Assembly (NCBI GenBank): GCA_030583745.1
Contig: CP129473.1
Location: forward strand, 616,211-680,210
Length of the DNA stretch: 64,000 nucleotides
Direction of reading: 5' to 3'
From: Minisyncoccota bacterium
GTDB lineage: Bacteria > Patescibacteriota > Minisyncoccia > Phycocordibacterales > BOKC01
Both the position numbers and the translations under genes were made by a program. The notes beneath the pieces are model-generated. The model saw only the letters and a list, made by a program, of their open reading frames with translations, searched no databases and was not told the DNA's origin. Positions within the stretch are counted from its first letter, which is position 1, and each line of letters begins with the position of its first letter. Below are positions 30,879 to 64,000 of the stretch, one piece after another.

Positions 30879-30879
30879 G

Positions 30880-39878: not shown

Positions 39879-40103
39879 TGGCTAGTCGCTATACCCTAGT
39901 CTCTAAACCCTATCTCACTTATCCACACCCTCTTTGTAGTACCTTACCTCTTTGTTATAATTAAATTCGTCGTAAAGACAAATATTATTGGGATTTTGGT
40001 CGAATCAAGCCCAATTTTAAAAAAATTATTAGTAGAGTTAAAAGTTAAGAATTGTTCGCGCGAGCAATTTTAAAGTCTTAACAAGACTTAATAAAAATAA
40101 ATT

Positions 40104-40497: not shown

Positions 40498-40616
40498 GCA
40501 AGGAATTTGCTTGATAATTCCTTGATAAGAAAAACCCCCGCAAAACGGGGGTTTTTCTTTAAACTTCTAAAGTTTCCCACAACATCCTTACCTTATCAAG
40601 GAATTTCCTTGATAGA
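40498..40616. repeat. REP-like palindromic repeats (two copies) flanking the pilA terminator, upstream of the RAYT gene
   Basis: Perfect palindrome 'tatcaaggaatttccttgata' at 40593-40616 and a degenerate copy at 40498-40530. Confidence 0.8.
40535..40557 (+). terminator. Rho-independent terminator after pilA
   Basis: 'aaaaaccccc gcaaaac gggggttttt'. Confidence 0.8.
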
Positions 40617-40626
40617 ATAAAGGTAT

Positions 40627-41286
40627 ATGGGAATAAGAAACATAACTTTTTCCGAGGGTGAATTTTATCACGTATTCAACCGAGGTGTAGATAAAAGGGT
40701 TATTTTTATTGATAATGGCGATCGCGAACGTTTTGTCCGCCTTTTGTACGCGACAAACAGTACTATGGAAGCGCATATCAGCAATTATCAAGGAATTTCC
40801 TTGATAGAAATCCCGCGAGGGGAGACTATTGTAGACATTGGCGCGTGGTGCATTATGCCTAACCATTTTCATCTTCTGTTGAGGGAAAAAATTGAAAAAG
40901 GGATAAGTATTTTTATGAAAAAGCTATTAACGGGATATTCAATGTATTTTAATACTAAATATCAAAGGAAGGGTAAACTTTTTGAAGGGAAGTTTTCAGC
41001 AAAACATTTAAATACTGATAATTATTTAAAATACCAATACGCTTATATCCATTTGAACCCAATCGGCATTATTGAAAATGGTTGGAAACAAAAAAAGATT
41101 AATGACAAAGAAGGAGCCAAAAAATTTCTTTCTTCTTACGATTATTCAAGTTATTTAGACTATGCAAAATCAGACGACAGAGTAGAATCAGCCATTTTAG
41201 AAAAACCGGCATTTCCGGAATACTTTCAAACTTTCACTGAATTTAATTCAATGATTGATGAATGGATAAATTTTGAAGAATTATAA
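40627..41286 (+). mobile_element. REP-associated tyrosine transposase (RAYT, IS200/IS605-like HuH Y1 transposase)
   Basis: HuH motif CIMPNHFHLLL, the RAYT C-terminal motif YAYIHLNPIGIIENGW, and catalytic-Tyr region GYSMYFNTKYQ. It is flanked by cognate REP palindromes and contains one copy at 40785-40805. Confidence 0.8.
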
Positions 41287-41320
41287 TTTTTGCTTTTTTT
41301 GGTTTATAATTATTCTCATA

Positions 41321-41761
41321 ATGCATAGAAAAAATAAAGGCTTCACCTTGATAGAGCTCTTGGTGGTAATTTCTATTATTGGTGTTTTGGCTTCTATCGT
41401 TCTGGTCTCTCTTCAAAGCGCCAGGGAAAGAGCGCGACTAGCTGATGTTCAGAGTTCTTTAAGGTCAATTGTTCCTGCGGTAGTTTTATGCGTTGATTCT
41501 AATTCAGACCTTACTTGCGGACAATCGGGCCAGACCTTTCCTTGCACAGGTCAAGATGGCGGGGGGGACCAACCTTCAGCCGGCGTGCCAATATGTGGCA
41601 ATCTAAGCGCTACAGATGTTGCCTGGCCCAATTTACCAGCTGGCTGGAGTTATGGAAACAACGCAAGGACTAACCAAATAGAATCGACTTTTGAATATTC
41701 CGCAACTGGTAATGGTAATACCGTAACCTGCACTGAAACTGGCTGCCAAACAGAAAATTAA
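41321..41761 (+). CDS. Second type IV pilin or pseudopilin
   Basis: Prepilin motif KGFTLIELLVVISIIGVLASI. Start placed at MHRKNKG. Confidence 0.85.
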   Translation: MHRKNKGFTLIELLVVISIIGVLASIVLVSLQSARERARLADVQSSLRSIVPAVVLCVDSNSDLTCGQSGQTFPCTGQDGGGDQPSAGVPICGNLSATDVAWPNLPAGWSYGNNARTNQIESTFEYSATGNGNTVTCTETGCQTEN

Positions 41762-42628
41762 ATGACCATCTTTTTTTCTATTTCAATTTTTATTCTAGGA
41801 ACTTTAGTCGGTAGTTTTTTGAATGTGGTGACTCTGCGCTATGGCACGGATAGAGGTGTTGTTCGCAAGCGTTCTTCTTGCCCGTCGTGTAAAAAGGTCT
41901 TAGGTCCTGCCGAGCTCGTTCCAATCCTAAGTTTTATTTTGCAAAAGGGCAGATGCCGAAAGTGTAAGGCCAAAATTTCTTGGCAGTATCCGCTGGTGGA
42001 ATTTTTGACCGGCCTTGTTTTTCTCCTAGTTTTTTTAAAAGTTATCCTTTATCAAGGAAATTCCTTGATATCAAGGAATTTCCTTGATATGGGGACTATT
42101 GGAGAATTGTTTTTCTACTGGACAATCTTTTCTGTTCTAATTGCCATTTCAGTTTACGATTTCCATCATAAAATTATTCCGGATGAATTTGTTTTCACCT
42201 TTATCGCGCTTTCTTTTCTTGTCGGTTTTCTGGAATTTTTGAATTCCGGATTTTTAGCTTGGCTTTTGGCCGGACCCTTGATTGTCGCACCATTTTTTCT
42301 AATTTGGCTTTTTTCCGGCGGGCGTTGGATGGGCTTTGGCGATGTTAAGCTCGCGCTTGGTATCGGCTGGTTTCTCGGAATTGTCGGGGGAATTTACGCG
42401 ATCCTTTGGTCTTTTTGGATTGGAGGAGCAGTGGCGATTGTTCTTTTACTTTCAAAAAATTTTCTATCAACATTACCGTCCAAAGGCGCGTTGTTTTCAG
42501 AGCTTAAAGGGCTTACAATTAAGAGTGAAATCCCATTCGGTCCGTTTCTGGTCTTGGGCACGATGATTTATTTTTTTGCGGAACATGACTTTTTGGGGCT
42601 CGACATGTTTTTCAGACTAATTTTCTAG
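41762..42628 (+). CDS. pilD: Prepilin peptidase PilD (A24 family) with an in-frame tandem REP insertion
   Basis: Zn-finger CPSC...CRKC and peptidase A24 TM core. At 42051-42088 there are two head-to-tail 19-21-bp REP palindromes encoding ...YQGNSLISRNFLD... Confidence 0.88.
   Translation: MTIFFSISIFILGTLVGSFLNVVTLRYGTDRGVVRKRSSCPSCKKVLGPAELVPILSFILQKGRCRKCKAKISWQYPLVEFLTGLVFLLVFLKVILYQGNSLISRNFLDMGTIGELFFYWTIFSVLIAISVYDFHHKIIPDEFVFTFIALSFLVGFLEFLNSGFLAWLLAGPLIVAPFFLIWLFSGGRWMGFGDVKLALGIGWFLGIVGGIYAILWSFWIGGAVAIVLLLSKNFLSTLPSKGALFSELKGLTIKSEIPFGPFLVLGTMIYFFAEHDFLGLDMFFRLIF
42051..42088. repeat. Tandem pair of REP palindromes in opposite orientation inside pilD
   Basis: 'atcaaggaaattccttgat' plus 'atcaaggaatttccttgat'. 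Confidence 0.85.
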
Positions 42629-50429: not shown

Positions 50430-50978
50430 ATGTCTTTTGAATCTCCAATTTCAAGAAAAGAGCCAATCAGGAAAGTTAATATTGAGGGGGGTGTGAGTAA
50501 GGAAGAGCACGATCTTGTGGTTGGCATTTGCATTACTCGCTTGGCAAAAAACAAAGAAGGAGAAGGAGAGGAGGTGACGGAATATCTCTTGGTGCAAAGA
50601 GATCCACCTGATGGTCCATGGTATTTTCCTGGCGGAAAAGTGCATCAAGGAGAAACTATGAAAGACGCGCTTAAAAGAGAGCTTGAAGAAGAGGTGGGTT
50701 TAAAGTATGAGGAAGATTACTCCGGACCATTTAGAGATTTAACTTCAGGTTCTTACAATATAGAAGGCAAAAATTTTGCGATTGTTAATGTTTCTATTCC
50801 CCGAGATTCCATTAAAAAAGAACCGAAATTACAAAGCGATGACAAAGTCCAAAAAATGATCTGGACCAAAGACCCTTTAAGTCTAGATTTAATACCGCAG
50901 ACGAGAGAAATTTTAGAGGCAAAGATGAAGGGGGAAACAAATTTACCAAAAAGTAAGATGAAGAATGTGAAAAACTAA
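50430..50978 (+). CDS. NUDIX hydrolase
   Basis: Nudix box GGKVHQGETMKDALKRELEEEVGL. Confidence 0.85.
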   Translation: MSFESPISRKEPIRKVNIEGGVSKEEHDLVVGICITRLAKNKEGEGEEVTEYLLVQRDPPDGPWYFPGGKVHQGETMKDALKRELEEEVGLKYEEDYSGPFRDLTSGSYNIEGKNFAIVNVSIPRDSIKKEPKLQSDDKVQKMIWTKDPLSLDLIPQTREILEAKMKGETNLPKSKMKNVKN

Positions 50979-51174
50979 TTATACATATTTTCAATTCTAG
51001 AGTTTTCGTATATAACAAATTTACAAATATAGTCCCTCGGGACTCTGCCCTCAACAATTCGGGCAGGCGGCGGGGCAACTTATTTTCGCTCGGGCGGATC
51101 AGCAGGAGGAGGTGAGGGGGAGGAATGCCGAGCCGCCCACCAAATGGTTGGTCAAAAACCGAGAGGTCTAATTC

Positions 51175-51250
51175 TGGAGCCGACCCGGGGACTTGAACCC
51201 CGCACCTACGGTTTACGATACCGTTGCTCTACCAGATGAGCTAGGTCGGC
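51175..51250 (-). tRNA. tRNA-Thr(CGU) with an encoded CCA
   Basis: Acceptor gccgacc/ggtcggc; D-arm gctc-atctggta-gagc; anticodon stem acggt/accgt with loop aTCGTAa; T-arm cgggg-ttcaagt-ccccg; discriminator U plus CCA. Confidence 0.9.
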
Positions 51251-51298
51251 AGTGTTTCTACTATAAACTAAAAACTACCGACCACAAACCATTTCGGA

Positions 51299-51545
51299 GT
51301 CCCTATTGTACTCCGCTCGAACCTATTTTAGCAAAAATACCGAATGACCTGCCACGCGCCGCGCGCGTGGCGATGCGATACCAAATCGTACGCATTGGAG
51401 TTCGTGATGACTCTCAAACGCCGCCCAGCGCCTCCGCATCCGCTCCGGCGCTCCGCCCTCGCCCCGTTTCCGCTCTCATACTTTTCTTTTTTCGCGGGGG
51501 GATTTTTCAAAAATTGAATGGGCGGAAAACGGGGCTCGGTCGGCC
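51299..51545. repeat. IR1-L: a 247-bp GC-rich repeat that is identical, in inverted orientation, to 61304-61552
   Basis: The overlapping frame-translations are identical (82 aa SPYCTPLEPILAKIPNDLPRAARV...KTGLGR on opposite strands, and the 60-aa MKNPPAKKEK... ORF duplicated at 51328-51510 and 61343-61525). Confidence 0.9.
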
Positions 51546-52120
51546 TTCACCTAGGAAGGTGAAGGTGGGACGGCTTCCCATGCGGTGCCTCGTGACTTAT
51601 TCCTGTTTATATTGGCGTTCATGGTTAAAGGGATGGCACCCTCGGCATCCGCCTCGGGCTATTTCCGCTAGGGCTACGAGCGCCTAAATGCCTATGTGCG
51701 CTGCTTTTCCTCGCACTCCCGCTCTGCGGAGCGGGCGCTCGGGCAGCGCCTCTGTTTGGGGGAGAAAACGATTTTCTCCCCCAGCTTCAGGCTCCTCCTC
51801 GCAGTGGTTCACCAGAGTCTTCAGTGCTTAATTGTGTTTGTCTTTTGCACGCGCTTTGTGGCTTCGTTTAACGTGCCTTCGGAGTCCGCCTTCGCACAAC
51901 CCCCTCTTTTAGTTTTCATCCTTTCGTTTAGAGTGTCGCTTCCGCTACTAAACTTCTGTGACTTCGGTGTTCGTCGGCGCTCGTCCTTTAGCCCTGGACG
52001 CTCCTAGTGGAAATAGCCCGAGGCGCTGCCTTATGTGCTTGCCTGGCCGTGTTCACGGCTCCCACCCGTGCGCGCACAAACCCCGCCCGCTGACGCGGGC
52101 GGGGTTGCCTTATACTTTTT
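51546..52120. other. GC-rich, apparently non-coding structured region (candidate large ncRNA or a remnant of the element adjacent to IR1-L)
   Basis: No convincing ORF. Long-range complementarity 'gcctcgggctatttccgctagg' (51651-51672) against 'cctagtggaaatagcccgaggc' (52003-52025). An 11-bp perfect hairpin gggggagaaaa-cga-ttttctccccc at 51759-51783 and a terminal 10-bp hairpin ccccgcccgc-tgac-gcgggcgggg at 52081-52104. Confidence 0.5.
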
Positions 52121-52123
52121 AAG

Positions 52124-53923
52124 TTAAATCTCTTCTACTATCGGGACGCCTAAAATAGAAAGTCCGTTTTTTATTACTATTCCAACAGATTTTGTTAGTG
52201 CAAGCTTGTAATTTTCTCTCGGAGAACCGTCAAGGATCGGTTCTTTGGCATACCATGAATTAAAAGCAGAGCATATTTCTAGCAAGTATTGAGCAATGCC
52301 ATGCACAGATAAATCTGATCTGGCCATCTTAATGACGTCTGGTAAAAACAGAAGGAGCCACAGGAGCCTTTTTTCATCTTTCTGGTCATTGAAAATAAAT
52401 TTGGAAAAATCATGGGTATCTTTCGCCACTTCTTTTTTGCGTAAAATTGACTGAGTTCGAACGTATGTATACAAAATATAGATTCCAGAGTCACCTGATG
52501 TCTCTATTGATTTCTCGGTATCAAATGTAATGTCCTGTGTTCGATCCGGCTTAAGTAGAGCAAACTTTACTGAAGCAATTGCCAGACGTTCGGAAAGTTC
52601 TTCCATTATTTCTGAATCCACCTTACCTTCATTAAGAAAACGTTGATGGATCTTTTCTTTGACCTGATCAATCACATCATCAATAAGCACAACCGTGCCT
52701 TCTCTTGAAGACATTTTCTTAAACCCACCTGATTCTCCCTTCAGACCGACATACCCATAAGGAATATGTGTGAAATCATGAATGTCCCCGATACCCAACT
52801 GTTCACACACTGCAAAAAGCTGCTTCATGGCCAGAGATTGTTCTGGACCAATTACCCATACCAATTTATCGGCGCCATAACGGTTCTTTTTAAGAACAGT
52901 GAGAGCAATGTCCTGAGTGATATATAGAGATGTTCCGTCTCTCTTTAGTAATATCGTGTCTGAGATGTTATAAGCGGATAAATCGGTCAATATCGCACCA
53001 TCCTCTAATTGCTTAAAAATACCTTCCTTGAGACCGCGTTCAACATACTCTTTACCAGATTGATAATGCTCATGTTCATGCCATATAACATCCCAGTGAT
53101 TTTCTAACCGTGAAAGCGTTCTATTCATTCCTTCATATGCGTAGTTAAGAACATGAGACCAGAGATTCCATATTTGCTCATTATGATTTTCCCATTCGAC
53201 AACAAAGTTACGGACTTTATTCTCCACTTCAGAAGATTGTTTGAAATCGCTCTCTCCCAACACATAGCATTTGGTGACGAATAAATCAGGCTTTATCCCA
53301 ATTTCTGACGGAGCAAGCCATTCATCCTTATGAGAAATCCAGTAAGTAACATCGATTGGTAAATCATCTTTCTTTCTCATATGCGCAAGAAATCCCCACA
53401 TTAATTTTGCGATAGCTATACCGCGATTGTTATCCACCGCATCAGACACAACAGATGCTCCGTTCCATTTCAATAACCGAACAAGTCCCATGCCGACCAA
53501 ATTATTACGCAAGTGACCCAAATGCATTGCTTTGTTTGGGTTTGGGGATGTGTGTTCAACCACCCACTTTTCTCCAGATAAGTCAGTATTACTTCCAAAG
53601 CCTGATCCTTGATTTAAAATATCCTTAAGAAGACTGCTAAAAAAATCTTCGGAAAAAGTTATATTAATAAACCCTGGTTTTATTACTTCAATCGTTTTAA
53701 CATCTTTTATTTTTCTTGATAAAAGATGTCCGGCTATCTTATTCGCTAAAGCAAACGGGCTGATCTTTGCATTTTTTGAATATTTAAGAGCAATATTGCA
53801 CGTAACATCTCCCATTTCTTGACTCGGTGTCCTATCCAAACTCACCGCCGAAGTACTGATTTCAAAATCAGTAATACATTTTGCTATTTCAGATCGAATT
53901 GTTGCTAATGTCTTCGAATACAT
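52124..53923 (-). CDS. argS: Arginine--tRNA ligase
   Basis: HIGH motif HLGHLRNNLVGMG, class I Rossmann fold and a DALR anticodon-binding C-terminus. Confidence 0.92.
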   Translation of the reverse strand: MYSKTLATIRSEIAKCITDFEISTSAVSLDRTPSQEMGDVTCNIALKYSKNAKISPFALANKIAGHLLSRKIKDVKTIEVIKPGFINITFSEDFFSSLLKDILNQGSGFGSNTDLSGEKWVVEHTSPNPNKAMHLGHLRNNLVGMGLVRLLKWNGASVVSDAVDNNRGIAIAKLMWGFLAHMRKKDDLPIDVTYWISHKDEWLAPSEIGIKPDLFVTKCYVLGESDFKQSSEVENKVRNFVVEWENHNEQIWNLWSHVLNYAYEGMNRTLSRLENHWDVIWHEHEHYQSGKEYVERGLKEGIFKQLEDGAILTDLSAYNISDTILLKRDGTSLYITQDIALTVLKKNRYGADKLVWVIGPEQSLAMKQLFAVCEQLGIGDIHDFTHIPYGYVGLKGESGGFKKMSSREGTVVLIDDVIDQVKEKIHQRFLNEGKVDSEIMEELSERLAIASVKFALLKPDRTQDITFDTEKSIETSGDSGIYILYTYVRTQSILRKKEVAKDTHDFSKFIFNDQKDEKRLLWLLLFLPDVIKMARSDLSVHGIAQYLLEICSAFNSWYAKEPILDGSPRENYKLALTKSVGIVIKNGLSILGVPIVEEI

Positions 53924-54006
53924 ATTTGTGTTAATTAACCCATCTTAACAGAAAAATAGCTAATAATAAATGGAATAATCTGGTTTTATCAAGTATTATT
54001 AAAATA

Positions 54007-55407
54007 ATGAAAACCCACAATTTTCTTATCGCTACAACAAGACCAGAACTGATCGTTCGACAAGTCAATGCCTTTATAAAAGTGAGAAATGGAAGGCAGA
54101 TAAATTTTTATATATTTGATGATAGTTATGACAAGAAAGAATACTTTTTAAGAGAAATTTCTAAGCTACCTAAGGACGAGGCGTGGGTGAAAGTCTTTTA
54201 TTTTAGCCTTGACCAACAGAAGGCAATGCTTCTGGACACTGCACGCAAATACTCCTTAAAACTTCATGTATCAGGAGAAGAAATACTGAAGTGTTTTGAG
54301 GAGAAAAATGAATTGCGGGGTATTAGAAGTATTCAAAACAAATCTATCCTGATCTTCTATTTAAAAAACAATCAAAACAACAGTATTATCCATAAAATTG
54401 ATGACGATATTCTACCATACGAAGCTGACAGACGAAATGGTCGCGTAGAAATAATTCCTAAATACGACTTCTTTCAACATAAGGAAAATGTCATAGGTCA
54501 TGACAAAAAAGTAATCTGCGGAAGTAACTATACTATTGATTCACCGAGTCCATTGGTGCACTATGCGGATTTTGCAGAGTTTGTATATAAGTTTCTTACT
54601 ATAGCTAAAACAAAAACGGAATCCGAATTGGTTGGAGAAAATACAGTCACCATCTCACCTTCTCAGGCGGAAGAGGTATTAGATATCCACAACATTGTTA
54701 AGCTATTACCAATAGGCAAAAATCATACTTTTGGAAGCGCTCTCAGGGAACTTGAAAATCATATAAATTTTTTTAATAAAGGAATCTCAAGAGTTGTTAT
54801 AAATGATAATCGTCTACAGGAAAAAGGGACTAATAAATTCTTTCCGGGTGGTTGCGTTTCTTTTCTCTACAATAATGTCCCTACACTCACACCACTCTTC
54901 GGGAATCAAGACCTTCTATGGGAACTTTTTGAGGCGCTTGATGGAAAAACAATTTTCACCGATGGTTGTATTGGGCACGTAAAATCAGAATCAAATCGAT
55001 CATCTATACTTGAAGATTTAAAAGACTCTTCTTACAAGCACCAAACATCTGTAACCTATGCGGTGTTCAGCCATTTAGTTAGTAAAAATAGAGACGGTTC
55101 TCTGCATGATTTTGAAAAGAATTTTGTACATTTAATGAATAAGTGGTTAGAGGAAGCACGAGATTACACAAAAGATATACTACGTATATTAAACCATGAA
55201 GATGGTCTTTGGTTTCGTTCCGTTCAATACAGAAATGTTCTAAATAACTTAAAAGTTATTCTGAATGAATTTGAAAAATCTTATGAAGAAATAAAATCAA
55301 ATTTCTCTTATTCAAATATAGATGCTGATCGAATCGTTACAGATTATTTTCAAAAGAAGGGCATTTTCGATAAGTTGTTAAAACAAATCATCTCCGAACA
55401 TGTTTAG
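54007..55407 (+). CDS. Hypothetical protein (466 aa), possibly a glycosyltransferase accessory or nucleotide-sugar transferase-like
   Basis: Lies in the glycosyltransferase cluster; no clear motif. Confidence 0.5.
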   Translation: MKTHNFLIATTRPELIVRQVNAFIKVRNGRQINFYIFDDSYDKKEYFLREISKLPKDEAWVKVFYFSLDQQKAMLLDTARKYSLKLHVSGEEILKCFEEKNELRGIRSIQNKSILIFYLKNNQNNSIIHKIDDDILPYEADRRNGRVEIIPKYDFFQHKENVIGHDKKVICGSNYTIDSPSPLVHYADFAEFVYKFLTIAKTKTESELVGENTVTISPSQAEEVLDIHNIVKLLPIGKNHTFGSALRELENHINFFNKGISRVVINDNRLQEKGTNKFFPGGCVSFLYNNVPTLTPLFGNQDLLWELFEALDGKTIFTDGCIGHVKSESNRSSILEDLKDSSYKHQTSVTYAVFSHLVSKNRDGSLHDFEKNFVHLMNKWLEEARDYTKDILRILNHEDGLWFRSVQYRNVLNNLKVILNEFEKSYEEIKSNFSYSNIDADRIVTDYFQKKGIFDKLLKQIISEHV

Positions 55408-56080
55408 CATCATCATACCAGTACATAACTCATTAAAAATTCTCTCAGAGAATCTGAAAAATATTTGCTCCCAGATTGAGGCGTCTGATGAGATTATTGT
55501 AGTTGACGATAAGAGTGATAATGCGATTGAAATCAAAGAATTGGCCTATAGCTATAATGCAAAATATTATTACATCAATCCACATTCAACATATAATCGA
55601 TGTCTGGCAATAAATACGGGAGTTAAAAATGCCAGTAATAAATGGATCGTGGAATTAGATCAGGATAAAATACCAAATAGTAACGATTATTTTAAAGCTA
55701 TACGCGAGGAAATATCAAAGAATGATGACTATAAAATCGTCAGGTTTGGACACACCACAAACCACTTTCCAATCGAAATCAAATTGAAATACATAGATAA
55801 AAACAATAAGGCGACCTTCAATGCAATAGTAGGAGGCAATACTTGCTATTCCAAGCAACTTTTTAATGAAGTTGGTGGATACGACACTAAATTTGATGGC
55901 AACAAAGGATTCCAAGATTTCGATCTTTTCTATCGTTTTCAAAAACATGGCGCCAAACTATGTTATATAAAATCAATGCTCGCAGATCATGTGGATTCTC
56001 ACCAAAAAACAAACCAGATGTACAAGAAAAATATGTCTAGATTTTTTAATAAACATGGGTTTTATCCAGAGGTCGACTGA
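55400..56080 (+). CDS. Glycosyltransferase family 2
   Basis: FSIIIPVHNS...IIVVDDKSDN (GT-A DxD). Confidence 0.85.
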   Translation: MFSIIIPVHNSLKILSENLKNICSQIEASDEIIVVDDKSDNAIEIKELAYSYNAKYYYINPHSTYNRCLAINTGVKNASNKWIVELDQDKIPNSNDYFKAIREEISKNDDYKIVRFGHTTNHFPIEIKLKYIDKNNKATFNAIVGGNTCYSKQLFNEVGGYDTKFDGNKGFQDFDLFYRFQKHGAKLCYIKSMLADHVDSHQKTNQMYKKNMSRFFNKHGFYPEVD

Positions 56081-56092
56081 ATGAAATAAACT

Positions 56093-57268
56093 ATGAAGCG
56101 TAAATCACTACTTATCCTCGCACCGCCTGTGCCGCCACACCACATAGGGGGCGATGGAAAATTTGCGCTTGATATCGCTACTGAATTAAGCAGGAGGGGT
56201 CAGAAAGTCACTATCTTAACCCCGTTTTATAATGGCAGTTTTATAGATGAGCGACCTAACGATTTTTTAAGAATAATCAGAGTCCCGATCAGTGATCCGC
56301 TCAGTAAAGACCCATGGGACGTGCCTATTTGGGATCCAGAATTTACAATAGGAAGAGACAAGGTTCTTTTGGAGCATATAAGAAACCTTAATCTAATAAA
56401 TAAAGATGTGTGGGTTCATGAGATAGGCGGGTCTATTTACAATCGGTTACTACTTACTTTAAAAAACCAGGAAGAACTGTTTTACAGTTGTCACATACAG
56501 ATTGTCTTAGAAAATTACGATAAACTCATACCAAATAACAGGGATTTGAAAAAGCTTACTCTTGAGTCGCAACGATTGCTTATTAAAAATGCTTCGATGG
56601 TGTTCTTTTTATCAAAATTTGATTTCATACCATTTCAATACGATGTTAAAGACTACCGAATAGTTCCTAATGGAGTTGAGCTATCCAAATTTGTTTTTAA
56701 AAAGCAAGTTGAAAGAGATGCGTGGTATCGCATCTTTATCGGAGGAAGGTTGCATGACAAAATGAAAGGAGCGACAGAAATGTTCCCGATCCTTAATATG
56801 ATTTTAGAAAAAGAAAAAATGGTTGAATTGCATGTCTGTGCTCCCGATAAAACGTACTTCGAGCACTTCAGCGCTGAAGCAATGAAGCATGTTCATTACC
56901 ATGGATGGATTTCAGTCCAAAAAACTCAAGAGATTATAGGACGCTGTGATTTAAGCCTCGTACCATCTCTTTATGAGCCGTTTGGATTACTTGCCCTTGA
57001 GTCTCTAGCAAACGGCATACCAGTACTTGGTACAAAGACCGGAGGATTATCGGAGATGATAATACCAAATACCAATGGGGACTTTATAGATACGCAATAT
57101 CCAAATAAAGTGAAAACTATACTCGAGTATTACATATCACGCAAAAATAATTTACAACAACGAGATATTCAAGACAGTATCAGGAGGACGGTCGAAAAAT
57201 ATGATATCAAAAATATTGCTAATCTCTATATTAATAATCTCGGAGAATTTCAAGCGTCTGAATGTTAG
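56093..57268 (+). CDS. Glycosyltransferase family 4 (GT-B)
   Basis: EPFGLLALESLANGIPVLGTKTGG (the E-x7-E region). Confidence 0.85.
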   Translation: MKRKSLLILAPPVPPHHIGGDGKFALDIATELSRRGQKVTILTPFYNGSFIDERPNDFLRIIRVPISDPLSKDPWDVPIWDPEFTIGRDKVLLEHIRNLNLINKDVWVHEIGGSIYNRLLLTLKNQEELFYSCHIQIVLENYDKLIPNNRDLKKLTLESQRLLIKNASMVFFLSKFDFIPFQYDVKDYRIVPNGVELSKFVFKKQVERDAWYRIFIGGRLHDKMKGATEMFPILNMILEKEKMVELHVCAPDKTYFEHFSAEAMKHVHYHGWISVQKTQEIIGRCDLSLVPSLYEPFGLLALESLANGIPVLGTKTGGLSEMIIPNTNGDFIDTQYPNKVKTILEYYISRKNNLQQRDIQDSIRRTVEKYDIKNIANLYINNLGEFQASEC

Positions 57269-58179
57269 ACATCTGCTACAAACTTCTTACGGAATCTATT
57301 TCTTAGCTTTATTAGCGATGGAAACAAAAATTCAGGACGCACAATGGCACGTTTTACATACATCCAGAGACTTTCCATGCGGCCAAAATGCCTTATTAAA
57401 ACTTTATGTTCTTCAGTTTTTCTAGTTCCTTGTTCTCTAATTTCCGCTAAAGAATTTTGGTGTATTCGATATCCAGCAGTGACTTCTGGTATATAGCCTA
57501 TCTTTGTGTTAACAATTTTTGCATATTCAAACGAAGAAAGCGCGATGTCCACATCCTCAGCGCACCCAATATTAGGATCAAATGGTCCATCAAAACCATA
57601 ACGTCTTTTAACCCACAAGGTTAATCCTTCCAAAAAGTCTTTCCTCCAACACATGGTCGGATATGGCATCTTGCCAAAAATCCAAAAATTCTTGTATGCC
57701 CTTTGAGGGTTAAGAGCTTTCCAAACAAGGCGACCAGGGATATCATTATCGAAAAAAATAAAAGCATCAGAATAGCCAAAAGAAAATTGATTTTTCTCCA
57801 TAAAAGATAATCTCAAACCGAGATTGGTAACGAGATCATCAGAATCAGTGAATGAAATATATTTATGGTTGGAAATATCAATACCTGCTATATTTTTATG
57901 CTTGAGGCATAACTCTATTGCATAGTTTCTTGCATTTGTCGAACTTAGTGGTTCTGCATGAGACTTTTCTCTTCTGATCACTCTTCGCGTTGGATGGTCG
58001 GCATATTTTTTGCTTAATACCGAGTACATATCATCAGTGCTTCCATCGTCGACGATTAAATGGAAAAGATTGTCGAGATTTTGCGAATCAACTGATTGTA
58101 TTGTTTGTTCAAGATATTGGCGTCTATTTAGAAACCTCTGATCTCCAGACCGAGAATAATATGTGGTAATTAGAATCAT
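57265..58179 (-). CDS. Glycosyltransferase family 2
   Basis: ILITTYYS...HLIVDDGSTDD. Confidence 0.85.
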   Translation of the reverse strand: MILITTYYSRSGDQRFLNRRQYLEQTIQSVDSQNLDNLFHLIVDDGSTDDMYSVLSKKYADHPTRRVIRREKSHAEPLSSTNARNYAIELCLKHKNIAGIDISNHKYISFTDSDDLVTNLGLRLSFMEKNQFSFGYSDAFIFFDNDIPGRLVWKALNPQRAYKNFWIFGKMPYPTMCWRKDFLEGLTLWVKRRYGFDGPFDPNIGCAEDVDIALSSFEYAKIVNTKIGYIPEVTAGYRIHQNSLAEIREQGTRKTEEHKVLIRHFGRMESLWMYVKRAIVRPEFLFPSLIKLRNRFRKKFVADV

Positions 58180-60449
58180 AAAGAATTGATAATTTTCTCA
58201 AGCAACTTTTCTAGATATTCAAGGTGCCCAGAAAAATCAGAGTCAGATGTGTGAGGATTTCCTATTGTAACCCCCAGAACACGCAATTTTTGCTTACTAG
58301 GAATAATTTTCTCCGTGACATCGATAATGTCAAAAGTGTGTATGCACATGTAGCCCTCCGTATACGTCAGATTGTGAAGTGATTGGTTGATTTGGTTTAT
58401 TAATGAAGAGTCGAAAGTGATGTCTGGATAGTGTGATTGAAGTTTTTCTGGTGAAATAGAGAAAACTACACTATTTAGCTCAACATTATTAAGAGCGATG
58501 AAGTACTTCGATTCATTCATTGTTATAGACCACTTTTTTGCTAGGCTGAAGCGGTAATCCACCAACTCTCCCACACCATCAACACCAAGATGCTTCATGA
58601 AGAACCATAATTTTAAACTATCGAATGGTCTGCTCCCTAAAAATGGTGTTATCTGCCCCAAATCAAATGAACCCTTTTGAATAGTAATATCTGTGGATTT
58701 ACTAATCAGCTGAAGGTCGGCTAGATCTCTAAAGAGTATTGCGCTTGAGGAATATGGTATACCCAACCCCTTGTGTGGATCGATACTGATTGAATCAGCC
58801 ATTTCAATTCCTTGCATTTTCGCCTTTAAATTTTTTGAAAACAAGGCCACACCGCCATGACACGCATCGACATGTAGCCATACACTATGTTTTCTTGTAA
58901 TCAGTGCTATTTTCTCAAAATTTTCGATGGTAGTTGTTCTCGAATCACCAGCTTGTGCTACCACCGCAACTACTTTTGATGTTTTACTATTGTTGTATGT
59001 AACGAGCTTTGTTTCCAAATCATCATAATCAAGACGGTAATCATTAAGCATATTTATCTTCACAATATTCTCTTCCCCCAAACCGAGCCACCAGAATGCG
59101 GCTATATGAGAATAATGATAAATGGTATCGCCGGTAATGAGTAAGATCGGCTTTATATTTGATTCTGTTAAACCTTGCTTTCGTGATTCTGGAAAAACCT
59201 TACAACGAGCAACTAAAAGTCCGATGGTATTTGCAAGAGTACCACCAGTAACCATCACTCCTCCCACATCCAAAGCATTTCCAGGGATTTCTTTTGGATT
59301 CGCAAAACCAATAAGCTGGCGAAGCCAGTGAATAACCTGCACTTCGACAAAAGTCCCGGTTGGTGCGCTCTTAGCAGTTGCTATAAGATTCTGATTTGTA
59401 AAACACTCTAAAATACTTGCCGCCAATGCGGATGTGGCATTTCCAGAATCAGGAAAAGCTAAATAATTTGGAGATGATTGTCTTATTGAACCATCAAGTA
59501 TTTTTGTTTGATATTCTGATATAACTTGCTCCAAAGCCTGACCTTTCTCAGGGATATTCTCTAACAGATTTGCTTGAACTTTTTGTTCCGGATAAAAATT
59601 TAAAACTTTATGGTGATTATTGGTAATAAAATCAACACCGATATCTAAGCACTTTCTAAAAACCTTTTCCCCATATTCCTTGCCAATATCGCCAAGAAAC
59701 TTACTCTTTAAATCAAACTCAGATTTATCTGTTAATCTATTTAATGAGTTGATAGCATTGGATCTTCGCACGGTATATTTGTTTTCTGAAATAAGCACTA
59801 AGCCCTGCTGTTCGAGTTTCGATAGTATCAGCGGTAGATGCCTATCCAGATATTGTCTCGTGTAATTTGTATTGCAGAAACCCAAATATTCTTTGCCCTC
59901 ATCTAATAATCGGGTTATTATTTCTTGCTGATCAAAAGTATCTTTGCTACCGGATAACAACAGTAACAGTATGATAGATTGAAGACATCTGGTTTTTAAT
60001 TCCTCAAAACTTGCCGGGTCGCCTATAATCAACTGACTGGGACCAGCGCAAGCACTCAACCATTGTCTATACTCGTTGAATGTTGTCCACTCATTCGCGG
60101 CAAGAGGTAAAATCTCTACATGTTTTTGATCGTAAGTAAATCCGTATCCAGCTATTGCTTTTTCCAACTCAGAACGAGTAATAAACTCACCCGGGTAATG
60201 TTCATCAGGAATAAGTGCATAATCAACGTGAAACTGGATAAAGAATTCCTTAAACTCGTCAACCTTAGATTGAATTAAACTTCCGTCTTTGAAGATAAGT
60301 AATAAATCAATATCACTCGCTGGTTTGTTCTCAAGGCGAGCTCGGGAACCAAAAATAACTGCATATTCAACCTCAGTCGGAAACTGTTCCATTATCTTAT
60401 TCGAAAGAGTATGGATTAATTCGTCTTGATTTTCTATGTTGAACATCAT
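58176..60449 (-). CDS. Fusion protein: N-terminal Pol-beta-type nucleotidyltransferase domain plus C-terminal PLP-dependent group II decarboxylase-like domain
   Basis: NTase motif VIFGSRARLENKPASDIDLLLIF. The PLP-binding Lys sits in SISIDPHKGLGIPYSSSAILF, in a fold-type I decarboxylase (DDC/GAD-like) region. Confidence 0.75.
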   Translation of the reverse strand: MMFNIENQDELIHTLSNKIMEQFPTEVEYAVIFGSRARLENKPASDIDLLLIFKDGSLIQSKVDEFKEFFIQFHVDYALIPDEHYPGEFITRSELEKAIAGYGFTYDQKHVEILPLAANEWTTFNEYRQWLSACAGPSQLIIGDPASFEELKTRCLQSIILLLLLSGSKDTFDQQEIITRLLDEGKEYLGFCNTNYTRQYLDRHLPLILSKLEQQGLVLISENKYTVRRSNAINSLNRLTDKSEFDLKSKFLGDIGKEYGEKVFRKCLDIGVDFITNNHHKVLNFYPEQKVQANLLENIPEKGQALEQVISEYQTKILDGSIRQSSPNYLAFPDSGNATSALAASILECFTNQNLIATAKSAPTGTFVEVQVIHWLRQLIGFANPKEIPGNALDVGGVMVTGGTLANTIGLLVARCKVFPESRKQGLTESNIKPILLITGDTIYHYSHIAAFWWLGLGEENIVKINMLNDYRLDYDDLETKLVTYNNSKTSKVVAVVAQAGDSRTTTIENFEKIALITRKHSVWLHVDACHGGVALFSKNLKAKMQGIEMADSISIDPHKGLGIPYSSSAILFRDLADLQLISKSTDITIQKGSFDLGQITPFLGSRPFDSLKLWFFMKHLGVDGVGELVDYRFSLAKKWSITMNESKYFIALNNVELNSVVFSISPEKLQSHYPDITFDSSLINQINQSLHNLTYTEGYMCIHTFDIIDVTEKIIPSKQKLRVLGVTIGNPHTSDSDFSGHLEYLEKLLEKIINSL

Positions 60450-60454
60450 AGTAT

Positions 60455-61261
60455 TTATTTATGCAATTCACTATTTAACTTCTCGACGAGAAACCCATGT
60501 AGATGGCCGTTACTTAAAATAGCTCCTTTTATTGGACAATCATAACGTTGATCTTCACCAAATAAGTCCGTTACCTTACCACCAGCCTCTTCAATAATAA
60601 TCTTTAGTGGAGCAATATCGTACAAAGTATCCCACCAAAATATCACCGCATCCGCTTTCCCCATAGCCAGATAAGAGCAGTGTTCTGAAAAAGAATAGAA
60701 ATCAAGATAATACTTCGCGTCTTTTATAATATCTTTAATGAATGCACTGGGGGCATATAGTGCATTTTTATCATACAGACCAAAAATCTTTGCATCGCTA
60801 ATGGATCTAGTATCTGATATAAATATTTGATCGCATTTTTGATAGTTAGTGATTTTAGTCTTAAACGCACCACCACCCTTAAACGCAAAAAGTATTCGGT
60901 TTAAAATAGGATTTGCAACCACACCAAGCACTGGGGCGCCATCATCCAGTAGGCCTACTGATATTGTCCAGTTCGCTGAACCCATTACGAATGCGTCTGT
61001 TCCATCTATCGGATCAATAACCCATTGGAAATTAGAATTTTTCTTGAGAGAGATTTCTTCTCCCAAAACACCTTCTCCGGGATATTTTATGCTTATTTCG
61101 CTAATAAATTTTTTATTTAGGAAAACATCCAATTCTGTCACTAATGAGCCATCATTCTTTGAGTGATTATCATTATTACCATTATTAAAATGCTCCAGAG
61201 CCTTGTTTGCATTTGACGAAATAAACTTGAGCAGAAAATCAAGTCTATTATTTAGTTCCAT
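60455..61261 (-). CDS. Inositol monophosphatase / 3'(2'),5'-bisphosphate nucleotidase family protein
   Basis: Motifs WVIDPIDGT and WDxxA (FWWDTLYDIAP). Confidence 0.85.
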   Translation of the reverse strand: MELNNRLDFLLKFISSNANKALEHFNNGNNDNHSKNDGSLVTELDVFLNKKFISEISIKYPGEGVLGEEISLKKNSNFQWVIDPIDGTDAFVMGSANWTISVGLLDDGAPVLGVVANPILNRILFAFKGGGAFKTKITNYQKCDQIFISDTRSISDAKIFGLYDKNALYAPSAFIKDIIKDAKYYLDFYSFSEHCSYLAMGKADAVIFWWDTLYDIAPLKIIIEEAGGKVTDLFGEDQRYDCPIKGAILSNGHLHGFLVEKLNSELHK

Positions 61262-61303
61262 GGAATGTAATCTAGCGTAAAATTACTTTATTTTCAAGAA
61301 ATT

Positions 61304-61552
61304 TTAGGCCCGACCGAGCCCCGTTTTCCGCCCATTCAATTTTTGAAAAATCCCCCCGCGAAAAAAGAAAAGTATGAGAGCGGAAACGGGGCGAGGGCGG
61401 AGCGCCGGAGCGGATGCGGAGGCGCTGGGCGGCGTTTGAGAGTCATCACGAACTCCAATGCGTACGATTTGGTATCGCATCGCCACGCGCGCGGCGCGTG
61501 GCAGGTCATTCGGTATTTTTGCTAAAATAGGTTCGAGCGGAGTACAATAGGG
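61304..61552. repeat. IR1-R: inverted copy of the 247-bp repeat
   Basis: See IR1-L; identity ends at the same 'ctcggtcgg' boundary. Confidence 0.9.
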
Positions 61553-61554
61553 AC

Positions 61555-61655
61555 TCAAGAATCAAACTCAACTGCTTTTTAGGGGCAGAAGTTTTGGCGG
61601 CGCGAAGCGCCGCATAAGGGGGGATGGGATTTCCGCGCGCTTCGCGCGCGTGAAG
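61555..61655. repeat. IR2-a: a ~100-bp GC-rich repeat, inverted relative to 63307-63410
   Basis: Identical 33-aa translation HAREARGNPIPPYAALRAAKTSAPKKQLSLILE on opposite strands. It contains the palindromic core 'cgcgcgcgaagcgcgcg'. Confidence 0.9.
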
Positions 61656-61920
61656 GAGGTTCAGAAAATTCTGATCCGAAAATTTTGGAGGGAGGATCAA
61701 AAGGCAGCTCTGCAAGTTTATGTGTGTTTACCCCACCCGCCCGTGCGCACACACCAATCATCGCCGTTTTTGCGGAGACATTATAAAACGGCGATGATTG
61801 CTCCCATGGAAAGTGCTATACTTTAAGTGCAATCAATCCGACAGGTCGTCTTTCCTAATGGCCGTCCCAGACAGTTCAAGGCGACTTGGATTGATTGCAC
61901 CGGGGCGGCCATTTAAGTTT

Positions 61921-63468
61921 ATGAAATATTTTCTATACGCTAGAAAATCTACTGATGTCGAGGACAAGCAAGTGCTTTCTATTGAAGCACAGCTTTCAGA
62001 GTTGAGAATTATTGCCAGAAATCAGGAGTTGGAAATTTTAGAAGAGTTTATTGAAAAACGAAGTGCAAAATCTCCAGGCCGCCCCACGTTCGGCGACATG
62101 ATGGCGCGGATTCAAAAGGGCGAAGCGAATGGCATTATTTGTTGGAAGGTAGACCGCCTCGCGAGAAATCCCGTGGATGGCGGACAAGTGCAGTGGCTTT
62201 TGCAGCAAGGTGTCATTCGCCACATTCAAACACACGACCGCTCGCACTATCCGAACGACAATGTGTTGATGATGTCCGTCGAGCTCGGGATGGCGAACGA
62301 GTACATACGCCAACTCTCCGCAAACACAGCACGGGGATTGCGGCAAAAAGCGAGGCAAGGAATTTATCCCGGACTCGCCCCTATCGGTTACATAAATGAT
62401 CCGCGCACCAAAACCATCCGCGTTCACAAGAAAAATGCCGCGCTGGTGCGCGAAATGTTTGAAAAGTACGCAAGCGGAAGCGCAACGCTCGACGGCCTCG
62501 CGACTTTTCTTGAAAACGCAGGCGTAATATCAAAAGGAAATCGTCGCGTCCATATCTCGCGCATCTCGTTCATTTTGCAAAATCCATTTTATTACGGACA
62601 CTTCCGCTACGCGGGCGAAGTGTACGAGGGAAATCACATGTCTCTCATTTCAAAAGCACTGTACGACAAGGCGAACGCAGTGCTTCGCGGACGTGGCCGG
62701 ACACTCGCCGTCAAAACCGATCCTGCGCCATACTGCGGACTCCTGCGTTGCGGCTTCTGCGGCATGGCAATCACGGCCGAGATGAAAGAGAAGCATCAGA
62801 AGAACGGGAATGTTCATCGCTACACATATTACCGATGTACACGCAAGAACAAGGCCGTGAGATGCAAAGAAGCGCCGATGCGAAGCGAGCTTTTGGACTC
62901 GCAACTTTCGGCGCTTCTTTCCGAATACACCATGTCGCAGGAGTGGGTATCTCCACTTTCGGAGATGCTGAATACAGAAGCCGCTAACGCTTCCAAAACG
63001 GCGGCGGAGGCCGTTCAAGAACTGCGAGACAAGTGCGAAAACATTTCTCGGCAAATAACGCGCTTGACGGACTTGTATGTTGCCGAGGACATCGAGCGCG
63101 AAGATTACTTGTCTCGCAGGCGTTCTCTTATGTCGGAACGCCGGACGATAGAAGAAAATATCGTCCGTCTTGAACGAGCCCCCGCTTTATGGGTTGAACC
63201 TGTCCGAAATTGGATAACGGACGCTTCAACACTGGACAAAATCGCGCAAGCGGAAGACCTCCTTTTGAAAAAATCATCCCTCCAAAAAATTTTCGGATTG
63301 AACCTCTCAATTCACGCGCGCGAAGCGCGCGGAAATCCCATCCCCCCTTATGCGGCGCTTCGCGCCGCCAAAACTTCTGCCCCTAAAAAGCAGTTGAGTT
63401 TGATTCTTGAGCCAACGGTCGGAATTGAACCGACGACCTCGCCCTTCGCTTTTACCCCTGTTTCCTAG
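61921..63468 (+). CDS. Large serine recombinase (resolvase/invertase catalytic domain, recombinase domain, zinc ribbon and coiled-coil)
   Basis: YARKSTDVEDKQVLSIEAQ holds the catalytic Ser; zinc ribbon CGLLRCGFCG...YYRC. The gene is GC-rich, about 55%. The ORF's last ~55 codons run through IR2-b and the antisense tRNA 3' exon, so the real stop is uncertain. Confidence 0.85.
   Translation: MKYFLYARKSTDVEDKQVLSIEAQLSELRIIARNQELEILEEFIEKRSAKSPGRPTFGDMMARIQKGEANGIICWKVDRLARNPVDGGQVQWLLQQGVIRHIQTHDRSHYPNDNVLMMSVELGMANEYIRQLSANTARGLRQKARQGIYPGLAPIGYINDPRTKTIRVHKKNAALVREMFEKYASGSATLDGLATFLENAGVISKGNRRVHISRISFILQNPFYYGHFRYAGEVYEGNHMSLISKALYDKANAVLRGRGRTLAVKTDPAPYCGLLRCGFCGMAITAEMKEKHQKNGNVHRYTYYRCTRKNKAVRCKEAPMRSELLDSQLSALLSEYTMSQEWVSPLSEMLNTEAANASKTAAEAVQELRDKCENISRQITRLTDLYVAEDIEREDYLSRRRSLMSERRTIEENIVRLERAPALWVEPVRNWITDASTLDKIAQAEDLLLKKSSLQKIFGLNLSIHAREARGNPIPPYAALRAAKTSAPKKQLSLILEPTVGIEPTTSPFAFTPVS
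63307..63410. repeat. IR2-b: copy of the 100-bp repeat that ends exactly at the tRNA-Thr(GGU) 3' end
   Basis: Identity with 61555-61655 (inverted) stops at 63410, which is the discriminator position of the minus-strand tRNA. Confidence 0.9.
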
Positions 63469-63691
63469 AAGCTTATCAGGGGGCTAGACTGTATCTTAGA
63501 CTTATTCGTAATTGTGAACTTAGTCTCCCTTGTCAGTCGTTCGGGCCTCCCAATTAAATTAACTGAGATGCCACGGTCTTAACCAAGCTCTGGTCTTTAA
63601 CCGTTATTCAGGATTCTCTAAAAGATTTCTCTTTTAGAGGGCAGAAATGCTTTCTACCATGGGCGTGCTCTACCAACTGAGCTACGTTGGC
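63410..63691 (-). tRNA. Intron-containing tRNA, most consistent with tRNA-Thr(GGU)
   Basis: The 5' exon reads gccaacg-ta-gctc-agttggta-gagc-a-cgccc-auggu. The 3' exon reads aa-gggcg-aggtc-gtcgg-ttcaatt-ccgac-cgttggc-u. The acceptor and anticodon stems are perfectly complementary across a 209-nt insertion in the anticodon loop. Confidence 0.75.
63447..63655 (-). ncRNA. Candidate group I intron (~209 nt) in the tRNA anticodon loop between positions 36 and 37
   Basis: The 5' splice site follows a U that forms a U-G pair within a P1 hairpin (GGU|AGAAA gca UUUCUGCC). P2 is a 9-bp hairpin (CUCUAAAAG...CUUUUAGAG). A P7-like pair AGACUA / AGUCUAG is present. The intron ends in G (..AAAAGCG|AA). An A-rich bulged P4-P6-like hairpin is also present. 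Confidence 0.55.
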
Positions 63692-63789
63692 GCATTAAAT
63701 TAATGCGTGGCTAAATCCTATTATATAAAATCACTTTTTTCAACACTTTTTCATGTTAAAATCAAAACTACGATCAGGAAATTGAGGCG

Positions 63790-63995: not shown

Positions 63996-64000
63996 TATTT

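Follow-up and report, generated by a model that had tools for sequence, protein, structure and literature searches.

The segment at positions 51546-52120 of a 64,000-nt stretch of the Minisyncoccota bacterium contig CP129473.1 (the window; all coordinates given below are window positions) raises the question of what a GC-rich piece of DNA without a credible gene is doing next to a long inverted repeat. In a preliminary description, made from the letters alone, the segment was proposed as a candidate novel large non-coding RNA. Homologue searches, covariance models and counts of paired positions were here used for the analysis of this segment and of the island to which it belongs. The window contains, at about 51585-52110, one copy of a conserved, base-paired, multi-branched non-coding element of 450-550 nt, which was named U. 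It is most likely a new large structured RNA, and we rate it as a new class of element. The proposal was thus borne out with respect to the non-coding and structured character of the segment, its conservation across the candidate phyla radiation (CPR), its location on a mobile element and its place outside Rfam, while its action as an RNA and the strand concerned are tentative conclusions drawn from sequence patterns.

Composition and coding status of the segment

The GC content of 51546-52120 is 57.0%, compared to 39.7% for the window minus its two GC-rich islands, values close to the roughly 60% and 38% of the preliminary description. Since the recombinase gene of the same island and its flanks are also GC-rich (about 50%), GC content alone is no proof of structure. 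The long-range complementarity, described earlier as an exact match of 22 nt, is real but not exact: it comprises 23 nt (51650-51672 with 52003-52025) with a single mismatch, G51667 facing T52008, which is a G·U pair on the plus strand. Relaxing the stringency lengthens the complement to 40 nt at 82.5% identity (51650-51688 with 51987-52025). A 23-nt complement was reached in 0 of 300 shuffles of the segment (mean 10.6, maximum 14). Two local hairpins were likewise present and longer than described. The hairpin 51757-51768/51772-51783 is a perfect stem of 12 bp instead of 11 bp with a 3-nt loop, and the terminal GC hairpin 52079-52090/52095-52106 has its 10 G-C pairs within a likewise perfect stem of 12 bp with a 4-nt loop. 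Compared to dinucleotide shuffles, the predicted fold of the segment has z-scores of −7.1 on the plus strand and −8.3 on the minus strand. The conserved unit adjoins the inverted repeat (IR1-L, 51297-51543) and is physically continuous with it, but begins about 40-50 nt downstream of the start that had been assigned to it.

A protein-coding gene or pseudogene was excluded as an explanation for U, in line with the earlier statement that the segment has no credible open reading frame (ORF). None of the five ORFs of the segment matched Pfam at E ≤ 1, the gap runs among the homologues described below are mostly not multiples of three (911, 285 and 155 runs with a length modulo 3 of 1, 2 and 0, respectively), and the column entropy of the homologue alignment is flat with respect to codon phase (0.65/0.66/0.70). 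The conservation is strong and not codon-periodic, and no match identifies the segment as a degraded known gene.

Searches with Rfam 15, at the gathering thresholds and at E ≤ 10, returned no family for U on either strand beyond a sub-threshold match to istR on the terminal hairpin. Within 50900-52300 only tRNA scored above gathering; the next match, istR, reached 20.6 bits against a gathering threshold of 45 (E = 0.2) and covers the terminal hairpin only. As positive controls, tRNA and tmRNA within the same window scored well. GOLLD, ROOL, HEARO, OLE, raiA, RNase P, tmRNA and group I/II introns, most of them named for this check in the preliminary description or set aside there by eye, gave no match, and neither did the covariance models of 6S, SRP and T-box. 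Among the papers searched in full text, none describes an element of this kind.

Conservation and distribution of U

For the homologue search, 77 recombinase-related loci were taken from metagenome-assembled genomes (MAGs) of Patescibacteria, with protein identities of 34-85% (mostly 52-85%); individual loci are named L0xx. An nhmmer search of these loci with window positions 51000-52200 yielded full-length or nearly full-length homologues of 51290-52080 in 15 of them. In addition, the invariant 18-mer CCTCGGCATCCGCCTCGG (51640-51657) was used as a probe of metagenome contigs and viral contigs. U was present in at least 40 loci of the metagenome contigs (40 of the 120 18-mer matches listed), while none of the 47 matches in viral contigs was real, all being chance matches without U. 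BLAST searches of phage and plasmid collections revealed nothing similar to U. Altogether, at least 47 full-length copies were collected, 46 of which are distinct, and all of them come from Patescibacteria genomes or metagenomes. The search for homologues called for in the preliminary description thus recovered U from dozens of Patescibacteria genomes, with compensatory changes.

The 46 distinct sequences were aligned (alignment A2) and used for the pair counts. Their pairwise identity averages 65% (range 51-96%), and the conservation is blocky, with up to 18 invariant nt alternating with stretches that vary in length and sequence. The invariant blocks of the U body are CCTCGGCATCCGCCTCGG, CGCACAACCCCC (51893-51904) and GTGTCGCTTCCGCTAC (51932-51947). 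The U profile matched the window at 51603-52080 with E = 9.6e-105. Logan contigs with an identical arginyl-tRNA synthetase (ArgRS) were regarded as the same strain (at least 99.8% identity); they hold no covariation information and confirmed the repeat boundaries.

Two copies of U (L038, L047) lie on one contig, and some close relatives such as L069 have none; U is therefore not a housekeeping RNA. Within the 64-kb window there is one copy, and across the loci the context is always the same, after IR1. A miniature inverted-repeat transposable element or insertion sequence remnant was rejected, as many dispersed copies would be expected, while U is single in the window and has a fixed context.

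Helices and compensatory changes

U consists of a body of about 375 nt, which is multi-way and closed by helix P1, followed by the P6 module, a hairpin and, in most copies, CTCCCT. Its parts in the window are as follows.

51544-51599, plus strand: variable linker from IR1 to the core, with a 10-bp hairpin at about 51544-51566; length and sequence vary (alignment A1)
51585-51595, plus strand: semi-conserved block GGTGCCTCGTG within the IR1-core linker
51600-52030, plus strand: U body, a multi-helix domain closed by P1 (nhmmer, profile, alignment A2, pair counts)
51650-51674 with 52000-52025, plus strand: P1, U body
51678-51684 with 51976-51982, plus strand: P2, U body
51698-51704 with 51743-51749, plus strand: V1 stem with a variable insert, U body
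51757-51783, plus strand: hp3, U body
51789-51792 with 51888-51891, plus strand: V2 closing stem, U body
51983-51986 with 51996-51999, plus strand: P2a, U body
52032-52078, plus strand: P6 module, stem GTGC-T-TGC (52035-52042) with GCG-C-GCAC (52070-52077)
52045-52059, plus strand: optional V6 hairpin inside the P6 module
52061-52077, plus strand: block CCCACCCGTGCGCGCAC inside the P6 module
52079-52115, plus strand: terminal GC-rich hairpin (52079-52106) and tail; an inverted repeat, hairpin kept, sequence variable

The pair counts were made on alignment A2 with 47 base pairs curated in six helices (P1, P2, P2a, V2 closing stem, P6). An unguided helix finder was overwhelmed by G/T-rich false positives. 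Standard pairs occupy 91.9% of the cells, compared to 86.7% in shuffles; changes on both sides were found for 17 of the 47 pairs (11.1 in shuffles) and in 104 cells (24 in shuffles). In each of these three measures 0 of 500 shuffles reached the observed value. When the 3′ partners were slid by 1-3 columns, pairing fell to 34-50% of the cells. P6 (helix 6) is paired in 96.8% of its cells, and five of its seven pairs change on both sides.

The compensations can be followed helix by helix. In P1, GGGC/GCCC is replaced by GGAC/GTCC, GGGA/TCCC or GGGT/ACCC, and CTAGG/CCTAG by CTATG/CATAG. In P2, GAGCGCC/GGCGCTC gives way to GAGTGCC/GGCACTC, GAAGGCC/GGCCTTC or GAACTCC/GGAGTTC, and in P6 GTGC/GCAC becomes GCGC/GCGC, CACAC/GTGTG or GTGTGT/ACACAC. 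The stems of V1, hp3, the V2 insert, V6 and the terminal hairpin are retained while their sequences change freely, and the motif CTCCCT follows the terminal hairpin in most homologues. The variable hairpins were read from unaligned sequences because MAFFT sets some of them out of register; for the same reason RNAalifold on the plain MAFFT alignment recovered only P1, hp3 and P6. Folding z-scores were between −3 and −13 in all 15 homologues tested. U thus shows compensatory substitution across diverged homologues, which is a generic criterion of a structured RNA.

One candidate helix, GGATG/CATCC (51632-51649), is not kept in the homologues and was dropped. One 3′ strand (CCCGAGG/UAGCGGAA) has several 5′ partners, namely three copies of CCUCGG and two of UUCCGCUA (in DNA letters three of CCTCGG and two of TTCCGCTA, each against the single complement), so that alternative folds are predicted to be possible. 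As a separate observation, a hairpin cassette GAACGGCTCA...TGAGCCGTTC occurs at differing places, in V1 of many U copies and in the IR1-U linker of L016, L020 and L024, and behaves as if it were a small insertion module.

Architecture of the island

The island that carries U is predicted to extend from 51297 to 63411 (12.1 kb) between two tRNA-Thr genes. The order in the window is tRNA-Thr(CGT), a 46-nt spacer, IR1-L, U, ArgRS with low-GC glycosylation genes, IR1-R, IR2-L, a short leader named X, the recombinase gene and a tRNA-Thr(GGT)-like gene.

51175-51250, minus strand: tRNA-Thr(CGT), found by ARAGORN and by Rfam tRNA at 59.9 bits; left flank, 5′ side toward IR1-L
51297-51543, plus strand: IR1-L, 247-nt perfect inverted repeat; its outer end at 51297 is the predicted island end
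61310-61556, minus strand: IR1-R, second, inverted IR1 copy, 100% identical over 247 nt
61554-61654, plus strand: IR2-L, inverted copy of the last approximately 100 nt of the recombinase gene; abuts IR1-R
61921-63468, plus strand: large serine recombinase of 515 aa with the Pfam domains Resolvase, Recombinase and Zn_ribbon_recom
63311-63411, plus strand: IR2-R, end of the recombinase gene; 101 nt, 100% identical to IR2-L
63410-63695, minus strand: tRNA-Thr(GGT)-like gene with about 210 nt inserted between its two halves, which were read from the sequence; right flank

The orientation of U is constant across the loci; it always stands right after the inner end of IR1, near one end of the island. 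In L020, L024, L027, L030 and L068, IR1 (plus strand) and U are likewise adjoined by tRNA-Thr(CGT). The convergent ArgRS gene has its stop codon at 52124, and in most loci a convergent gene ends no more than about 40 nt from U.

Most related loci likewise have an inverted copy of IR1 ahead of the recombinase gene. Independent Logan assemblies of the same strain all break exactly 30 nt into IR1, which is therefore a true repeat and not a misassembly. The outer block of IR1 is conserved in 61 IR1 copies and includes a conserved outward promoter-like site, which in IR1-L reads TTGCTA-18-TACAAT on the minus strand (51334-51305, toward tRNA-Thr), in IR1-R lies at 61519-61548 on the plus strand (toward X and the recombinase gene), and elsewhere has the variants TTTAAT or TTTAAA. 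The IR1 pair brackets 9.8 kb including ArgRS and the glycosylation genes, and the same arrangement is seen in related genomes. In L044 the IR1-flanked segment is in the opposite orientation; the segment therefore inverts on an evolutionary time scale. About 45 related loci have IR2-like repeats, one arm of which lies directly beyond the minus-strand IR1 copy and the other at the 3′ end of the recombinase gene; they are up to about 175 nt long (typically 110-175 nt) and 80-100% identical. Owing to this inverted repeat, the leader of a recombinase mRNA would be complementary to its own 3′ coding end.

The three-domain recombinase, whose gene adjoins the 3′ end of a tRNA gene, marks the island as an integrative island of the large-serine-recombinase type at a tRNA gene. 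An exact-sequence look-up of the 515-aa protein returned no recorded entry. The recombinase gene overlaps a tRNA-Thr gene with its 3′ end in the window, as it does in most of the 77 related loci. In the window, it overlaps the 3′ end of the tRNA-Thr(GGT)-like gene, which is the presumed integration target of the island. This tRNA gene was missed by both ARAGORN and Rfam tRNA, and its insertion gave a weak match to Rfam Intron_gpI (63454-63689, minus strand, E = 0.006); related loci have an intact tRNA-Thr at this position. Group I introns in tRNA genes of Patescibacteria are the subject of a 2026 report (PMC13011429), which fits the interrupted tRNA-Thr.

Three junctions (61550-61560, 51290-51305 and 63404-63416) have the core GAG in common. 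The left end reads CATTTCG-GAG-TCCCTATTG, the junction between the recombinase gene and the tRNA gene TTGATTCTT-GAG-CCAACGG, and the internal IR1-R/IR2-L junction, on the opposite strand, TTGATTCTT-GAG-TCCCTATTG. The internal junction would thus be the hybrid expected for the attP of the excised island, apparently kept inside the island in inverted orientation; the predicted island limits follow from this. To our knowledge, no described serine-integrase element carries its own predicted attP a second time, internally and inverted.

From locus to locus the cargo changes; a winged-helix-like protein is encoded in 13 loci, and genes for type I restriction-modification, methylases, reverse transcriptases and membrane proteins are also represented. 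Neither ArgRS nor the glycosyltransferase cargo of the window showed synteny in the other loci, and no replication or relaxase gene is conserved in the gene content of the islands across loci.

On the other side of tRNA-Thr(CGT), its 3′ side, lies a GC-rich stretch of 145 nt (51030-51175), which was considered as an old 3′ remnant of a recombinase gene and is unproven as such: it gave a single tblastn match of 26 aa (E = 1e-4), largely over the tRNA, and no match at the DNA level.

The duplicated 3′ module and the leader X

The 3′ end of U has a counterpart elsewhere in the island. The block CCCACCCGTGCGCGCAC, the P6 partner strand, a variable hairpin and CTCCC are present in each island as two copies of like orientation, one at the end of U and the other at the end of X, upstream of the recombinase gene.

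61720-61805, plus strand: paralogue of the U 3′ module, with a P6-like stem and CCCGCCCGTGCGCACAC (61720-61757), a hairpin (61756-61799) and GCTCCC (61800-61805)

A module profile built without the window gave two matches in it and no more, 52032-52091 with E = 2e-6 and 61720-61757 with E = 3e-4. The sequences of the X module were gathered by motif search from 39 loci. Regarding X itself, the leader at 61655-61720 and the homologous regions are highly conserved, with a CCGCGCGC-TTC-GCGCGCGG hairpin and GAGGTTCAG...ATCCGAAAA. The leader also has two TTTTGGAGGG repeats, which could pair with the downstream CTCCCT.

Variants of the island are informative with respect to the relation of U and X. 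L068 is a minimal island, in which U and the module stand directly before the co-oriented orf247, orf104 and recombinase genes and no second IR1 is present. In L053, orf247 and orf104 follow a short X leader instead of U. In L026, L028 and L069, the last being the closest relative of the window, the module is kept and the U body is largely or entirely missing. This makes U look like an optional and elaborate outgrowth of a scaffold that resembles a leader. The ORFs of 247 aa and 104 aa between leader and recombinase gene (L068 5700-6850, L053 218-1286) appear by eye to have a MerR-like helix-turn-helix at the N-terminus and to be STAS-like, respectively, and may be regulators of the island. 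Apart from these two loci, no conserved accessory ORFs were found between the second P6 module and the recombinase gene.

RNA or DNA, and which strand

The reading that we favour, tentatively and at somewhat less than an even chance, is that U is a structured RNA of the plus strand that descends from the recombinase leader and acts as a switch or scaffold that ties the expression or activity of the recombinase to a signal. U would be transcribed in the same sense as the recombinase gene, as an elaborated form of its leader. In the minimal-island state, represented by L068, U and the module would stand straight ahead of the co-oriented genes and the recombinase gene. In composite islands such as that of the window, cargo would have been inserted between U and the recombinase gene, and the short leader X with the same module would have stayed in place. 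The U RNA would probably serve as a conformational switch or protein-binding scaffold controlling excision, integration or inversion of the island. The link to the recombinase is supported by the fixed architecture, the duplicated module, the conserved outward promoter-like site and the orf247/orf104 pair shared by L068 and L053.

Several features hint at the plus strand. In 46 of 46 copies P6 contains one and the same U·G pair, additional U·G pairs, which alternate with U-A or C-G, lengthen hp3, c(UUCG)g and c(UGCG)g loops cap stems, and a C/U polymorphism in the second UUCCGCUA copy retains pairing only as G·U. Furthermore, the module is in sense orientation between the promoter-like site and the recombinase gene.

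A number of results weigh against a plus-strand leader RNA. Single mismatches flanked by Watson-Crick pairs are nearly balanced, with 11 of the G·T type and 8 of the A·C type, compared to 22 and 6 for the tRNAs of the same loci as control, and per-module G·U counts do not separate the strands. At two positions, 14-16 sequences have A·C, which is G·U on the minus strand. In 38 of 46 copies the minus strand has the lower raw fold energy, and mean fold z-scores are equal between the strands (−7.2 plus, −7.8 minus). C outnumbers G on the plus strand, an uncommon composition among structured RNAs. The promoter scan found no canonical promoter ahead of U on the plus strand, and the promoter and terminator scans around U gave nothing canonical on either strand. 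The gene beside U is convergent in about 38 of 42 loci, so that U is no cis leader there. Finally, the U body is absent from some islands in which the module is kept (L026, L028 and L069).

The alternative that survives best, though unlikely at roughly one chance in four, is that U is a folded DNA site acting in cis, single-stranded or cruciform. It would serve the priming or replication of an excised or imported strand, or act as an accessory or cassette-boundary recombination site, and the two directly repeated P6 modules flanking the cargo would mark cassette boundaries. Strand-symmetric mismatches are what folding at the DNA level would give, and the equal z-scores of both strands agree with this. 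Reverse-complemented, the frequent loops give C-GAA-G and C-GCA-G, DNA mini-hairpins of unusual stability, and the hairpin of X is GCGAAGC on the other strand. In addition, U adjoins a predicted arm of the attachment site, the P6 modules are direct repeats that bracket the cargo together with the internal inverted attP-like junction, and the cargo varies between islands as cassettes would. On the other hand, a domain of about 375 nt with a 25-bp long-range closing helix, a multi-way junction and long invariant unpaired strands has an RNA-like architecture, whereas known DNA origins and recombination sites have 60-250 nt and one to three hairpins. Large serine recombinases use short double-stranded att sites, the islands have no replication or relaxase/transfer gene in common, and the sense orientation of the module between the promoter-like site and the recombinase ORF is also at odds with a DNA site.

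We consider it doubtful that U is a minus-strand RNA by which cargo transcripts would be stabilised or terminated, whether as a structured 3′ extension to the transcript of the cargo operon or as an independent RNA lying upstream of tRNA-Thr. A minus-strand gene stops no more than about 40 nt from U in about 38 of 42 loci, with no canonical terminator between them, and read-through would therefore make a minus-strand RNA without a promoter of its own. Purines and G are abundant on the minus strand, as in most structured RNAs. This strand also has the lower raw minimum free energy in the 38 of 46 copies mentioned above, and on it the A·C found in P2a and at the end of P1 turns into G·U; both internal mismatches of the terminal hairpin are of the A·C type on the plus strand as well. 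However, the internal mismatches taken together (8 against 11) point in the wrong direction for this strand, the tRNA control being 22:6, and the invariant U·G of P6 and the U·G extension of hp3 would become A·C. Ahead of the recombinase gene, the homologous module would run antisense to the leader, and the flanking genes in L068 and L056 are co-oriented with the plus strand.

That U is a diverged member of a known family (RNase P RNA, group I/II intron, ROOL, GOLLD, HEARO/omega, OLE, raiA, 6S or SRP) is very improbable: its size, GC enrichment and tRNA-adjacent mobile setting recall ROOL and GOLLD, but it matched no Rfam family and nothing in phages, plasmids or viral contigs, and its presence in two copies on one contig or in none rules out a housekeeping RNA. 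An assembly artefact or decaying, functionless DNA that owes its GC richness to a foreign origin is effectively refuted, for although misassembly can create perfect inverted repeats and the recombinase region is similarly GC-rich, independent assemblies from several samples have the same sequence and break exactly at IR1, the architecture recurs in dozens of MAGs from different studies, and invariant 18-nt blocks and compensatory changes are found at 65% overall identity.

A further-reaching reading is that U represents a new class of large structured RNA that works together with a large serine recombinase, a family for which we know of no RNA cofactor, or else a folded single-stranded DNA site of the island of about 500 nt; we regard this as rather improbable. 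If U were such an RNA partner, it might, for example, decide when the island is excised or inverted, or which direction these reactions take.

Comparison with known systems

ROOL (RF03087) and GOLLD (RF01998) are multi-helix RNAs of about 500-800 nt, GC-enriched and with strong covariation, that are found on mobile DNA near tRNA genes. U resembles them in being large, ornate, non-coding and located on mobile DNA beside tRNA genes. In contrast to them, it fails their covariance models, its copies all came from Patescibacteria loci, and the mobile DNA to which it is tied is not a prophage but an island with a serine recombinase and nested inverted repeats.

With the bridge (seek) RNAs of IS110/IS1111, U shares the position of a structured non-coding element at the end of a mobile element, in or next to the leader of a recombinase and near the circularisation junction. 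However, the recombinase here is a large serine enzyme (Resolvase, Recombinase, Zn_ribbon_recom) and not a DEDD enzyme, and U is about three times larger than bridge RNAs. The suggestions of the preliminary description that the segment might encode a guide RNA or a ribozyme gained no support; a search for guide-like variable loops that match the attachment sites gave none. No loop of U is complementary to the cores of the attachment sites; only a 10-nt identity between 51293-51302 and 51878-51887 was found, which is at chance level. An omega-RNA of IscB/TnpB (HEARO-like) was rejected as well, since the neighbours are ArgRS in the window and varied cargo elsewhere, with no nuclease family common to the loci.

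The integron attC site and the attP site of CTX phage are similar to U in that structure is kept over sequence, the constraint appears strand-symmetric and the site lies at the boundary of variable cargo. They differ in being single imperfect hairpins of 60-150 nt used by tyrosine recombinases, whereas U is multi-branched, has about 500 nt with long invariant unpaired blocks and accompanies a serine recombinase.

The island as a whole resembles serine-integrase islands and prophages at tRNA 3′ ends, with which it shares a recombinase gene that abuts (here overlaps) the 3′ end of the tRNA gene, variable cargo and a 3-nt core (GAG) common to three junctions. It differs from them in the IR1 copies around the cargo, the IR2 copies around the recombinase gene, the internal inverted copy of the predicted attP and the structured element of about 500 nt. 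We know of no described serine-integrase element with nested inverted repeats or with a structured element of this size, and the island architecture, with its nested inverted repeats and the predicted attP copy inside it, appears to be undescribed.

Other features of the window

Near the end of the window, 63780-63998 (plus strand) is a GC-rich region of about 220 nt with several hairpins and a canonical terminator, CCCTCGCAC...GTGCGAGAGGG, followed by a T-run. It had no Rfam match at E ≤ 1 and no homologue in the fetched loci, and may be a small RNA or a leader cut by the window end. Farther upstream, a tandem repeat with a 63-nt period and four units at 98% identity (30622-30873) lies beside tRNA-Ser (30878-30965), and four copies of a 25-nt palindromic motif, TTATCAAGGAATTTCCTTGATA, are distributed over 40593-42092 and may represent an operator or a repeat element. 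Short runs resembling the telomere-type repeat CCCTAAA occur at 279-313 and 39866-39914.

Significance

Large, highly conserved structured non-coding elements are rare in bacteria, and earlier classes (RNase P, group II introns, OLE, GOLLD, ROOL, omega and bridge RNAs) were mechanistically informative. U is specific to Patescibacteria, whose biology and mobile elements are poorly known, and its island shuffles defence, methylase and surface-glycosylation genes beside tRNA-Thr. As a folded DNA site, U would be by far the largest of that kind. Whether dependent on RNA or on folded DNA, its action would add an extra layer to a recombinase family that is thought to work by protein-DNA recognition only. 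If U controls or assists the recombinase, it could provide a possible new part for genome engineering with serine integrases, and it would explain how cargo is exchanged among the reduced genomes of these bacteria.

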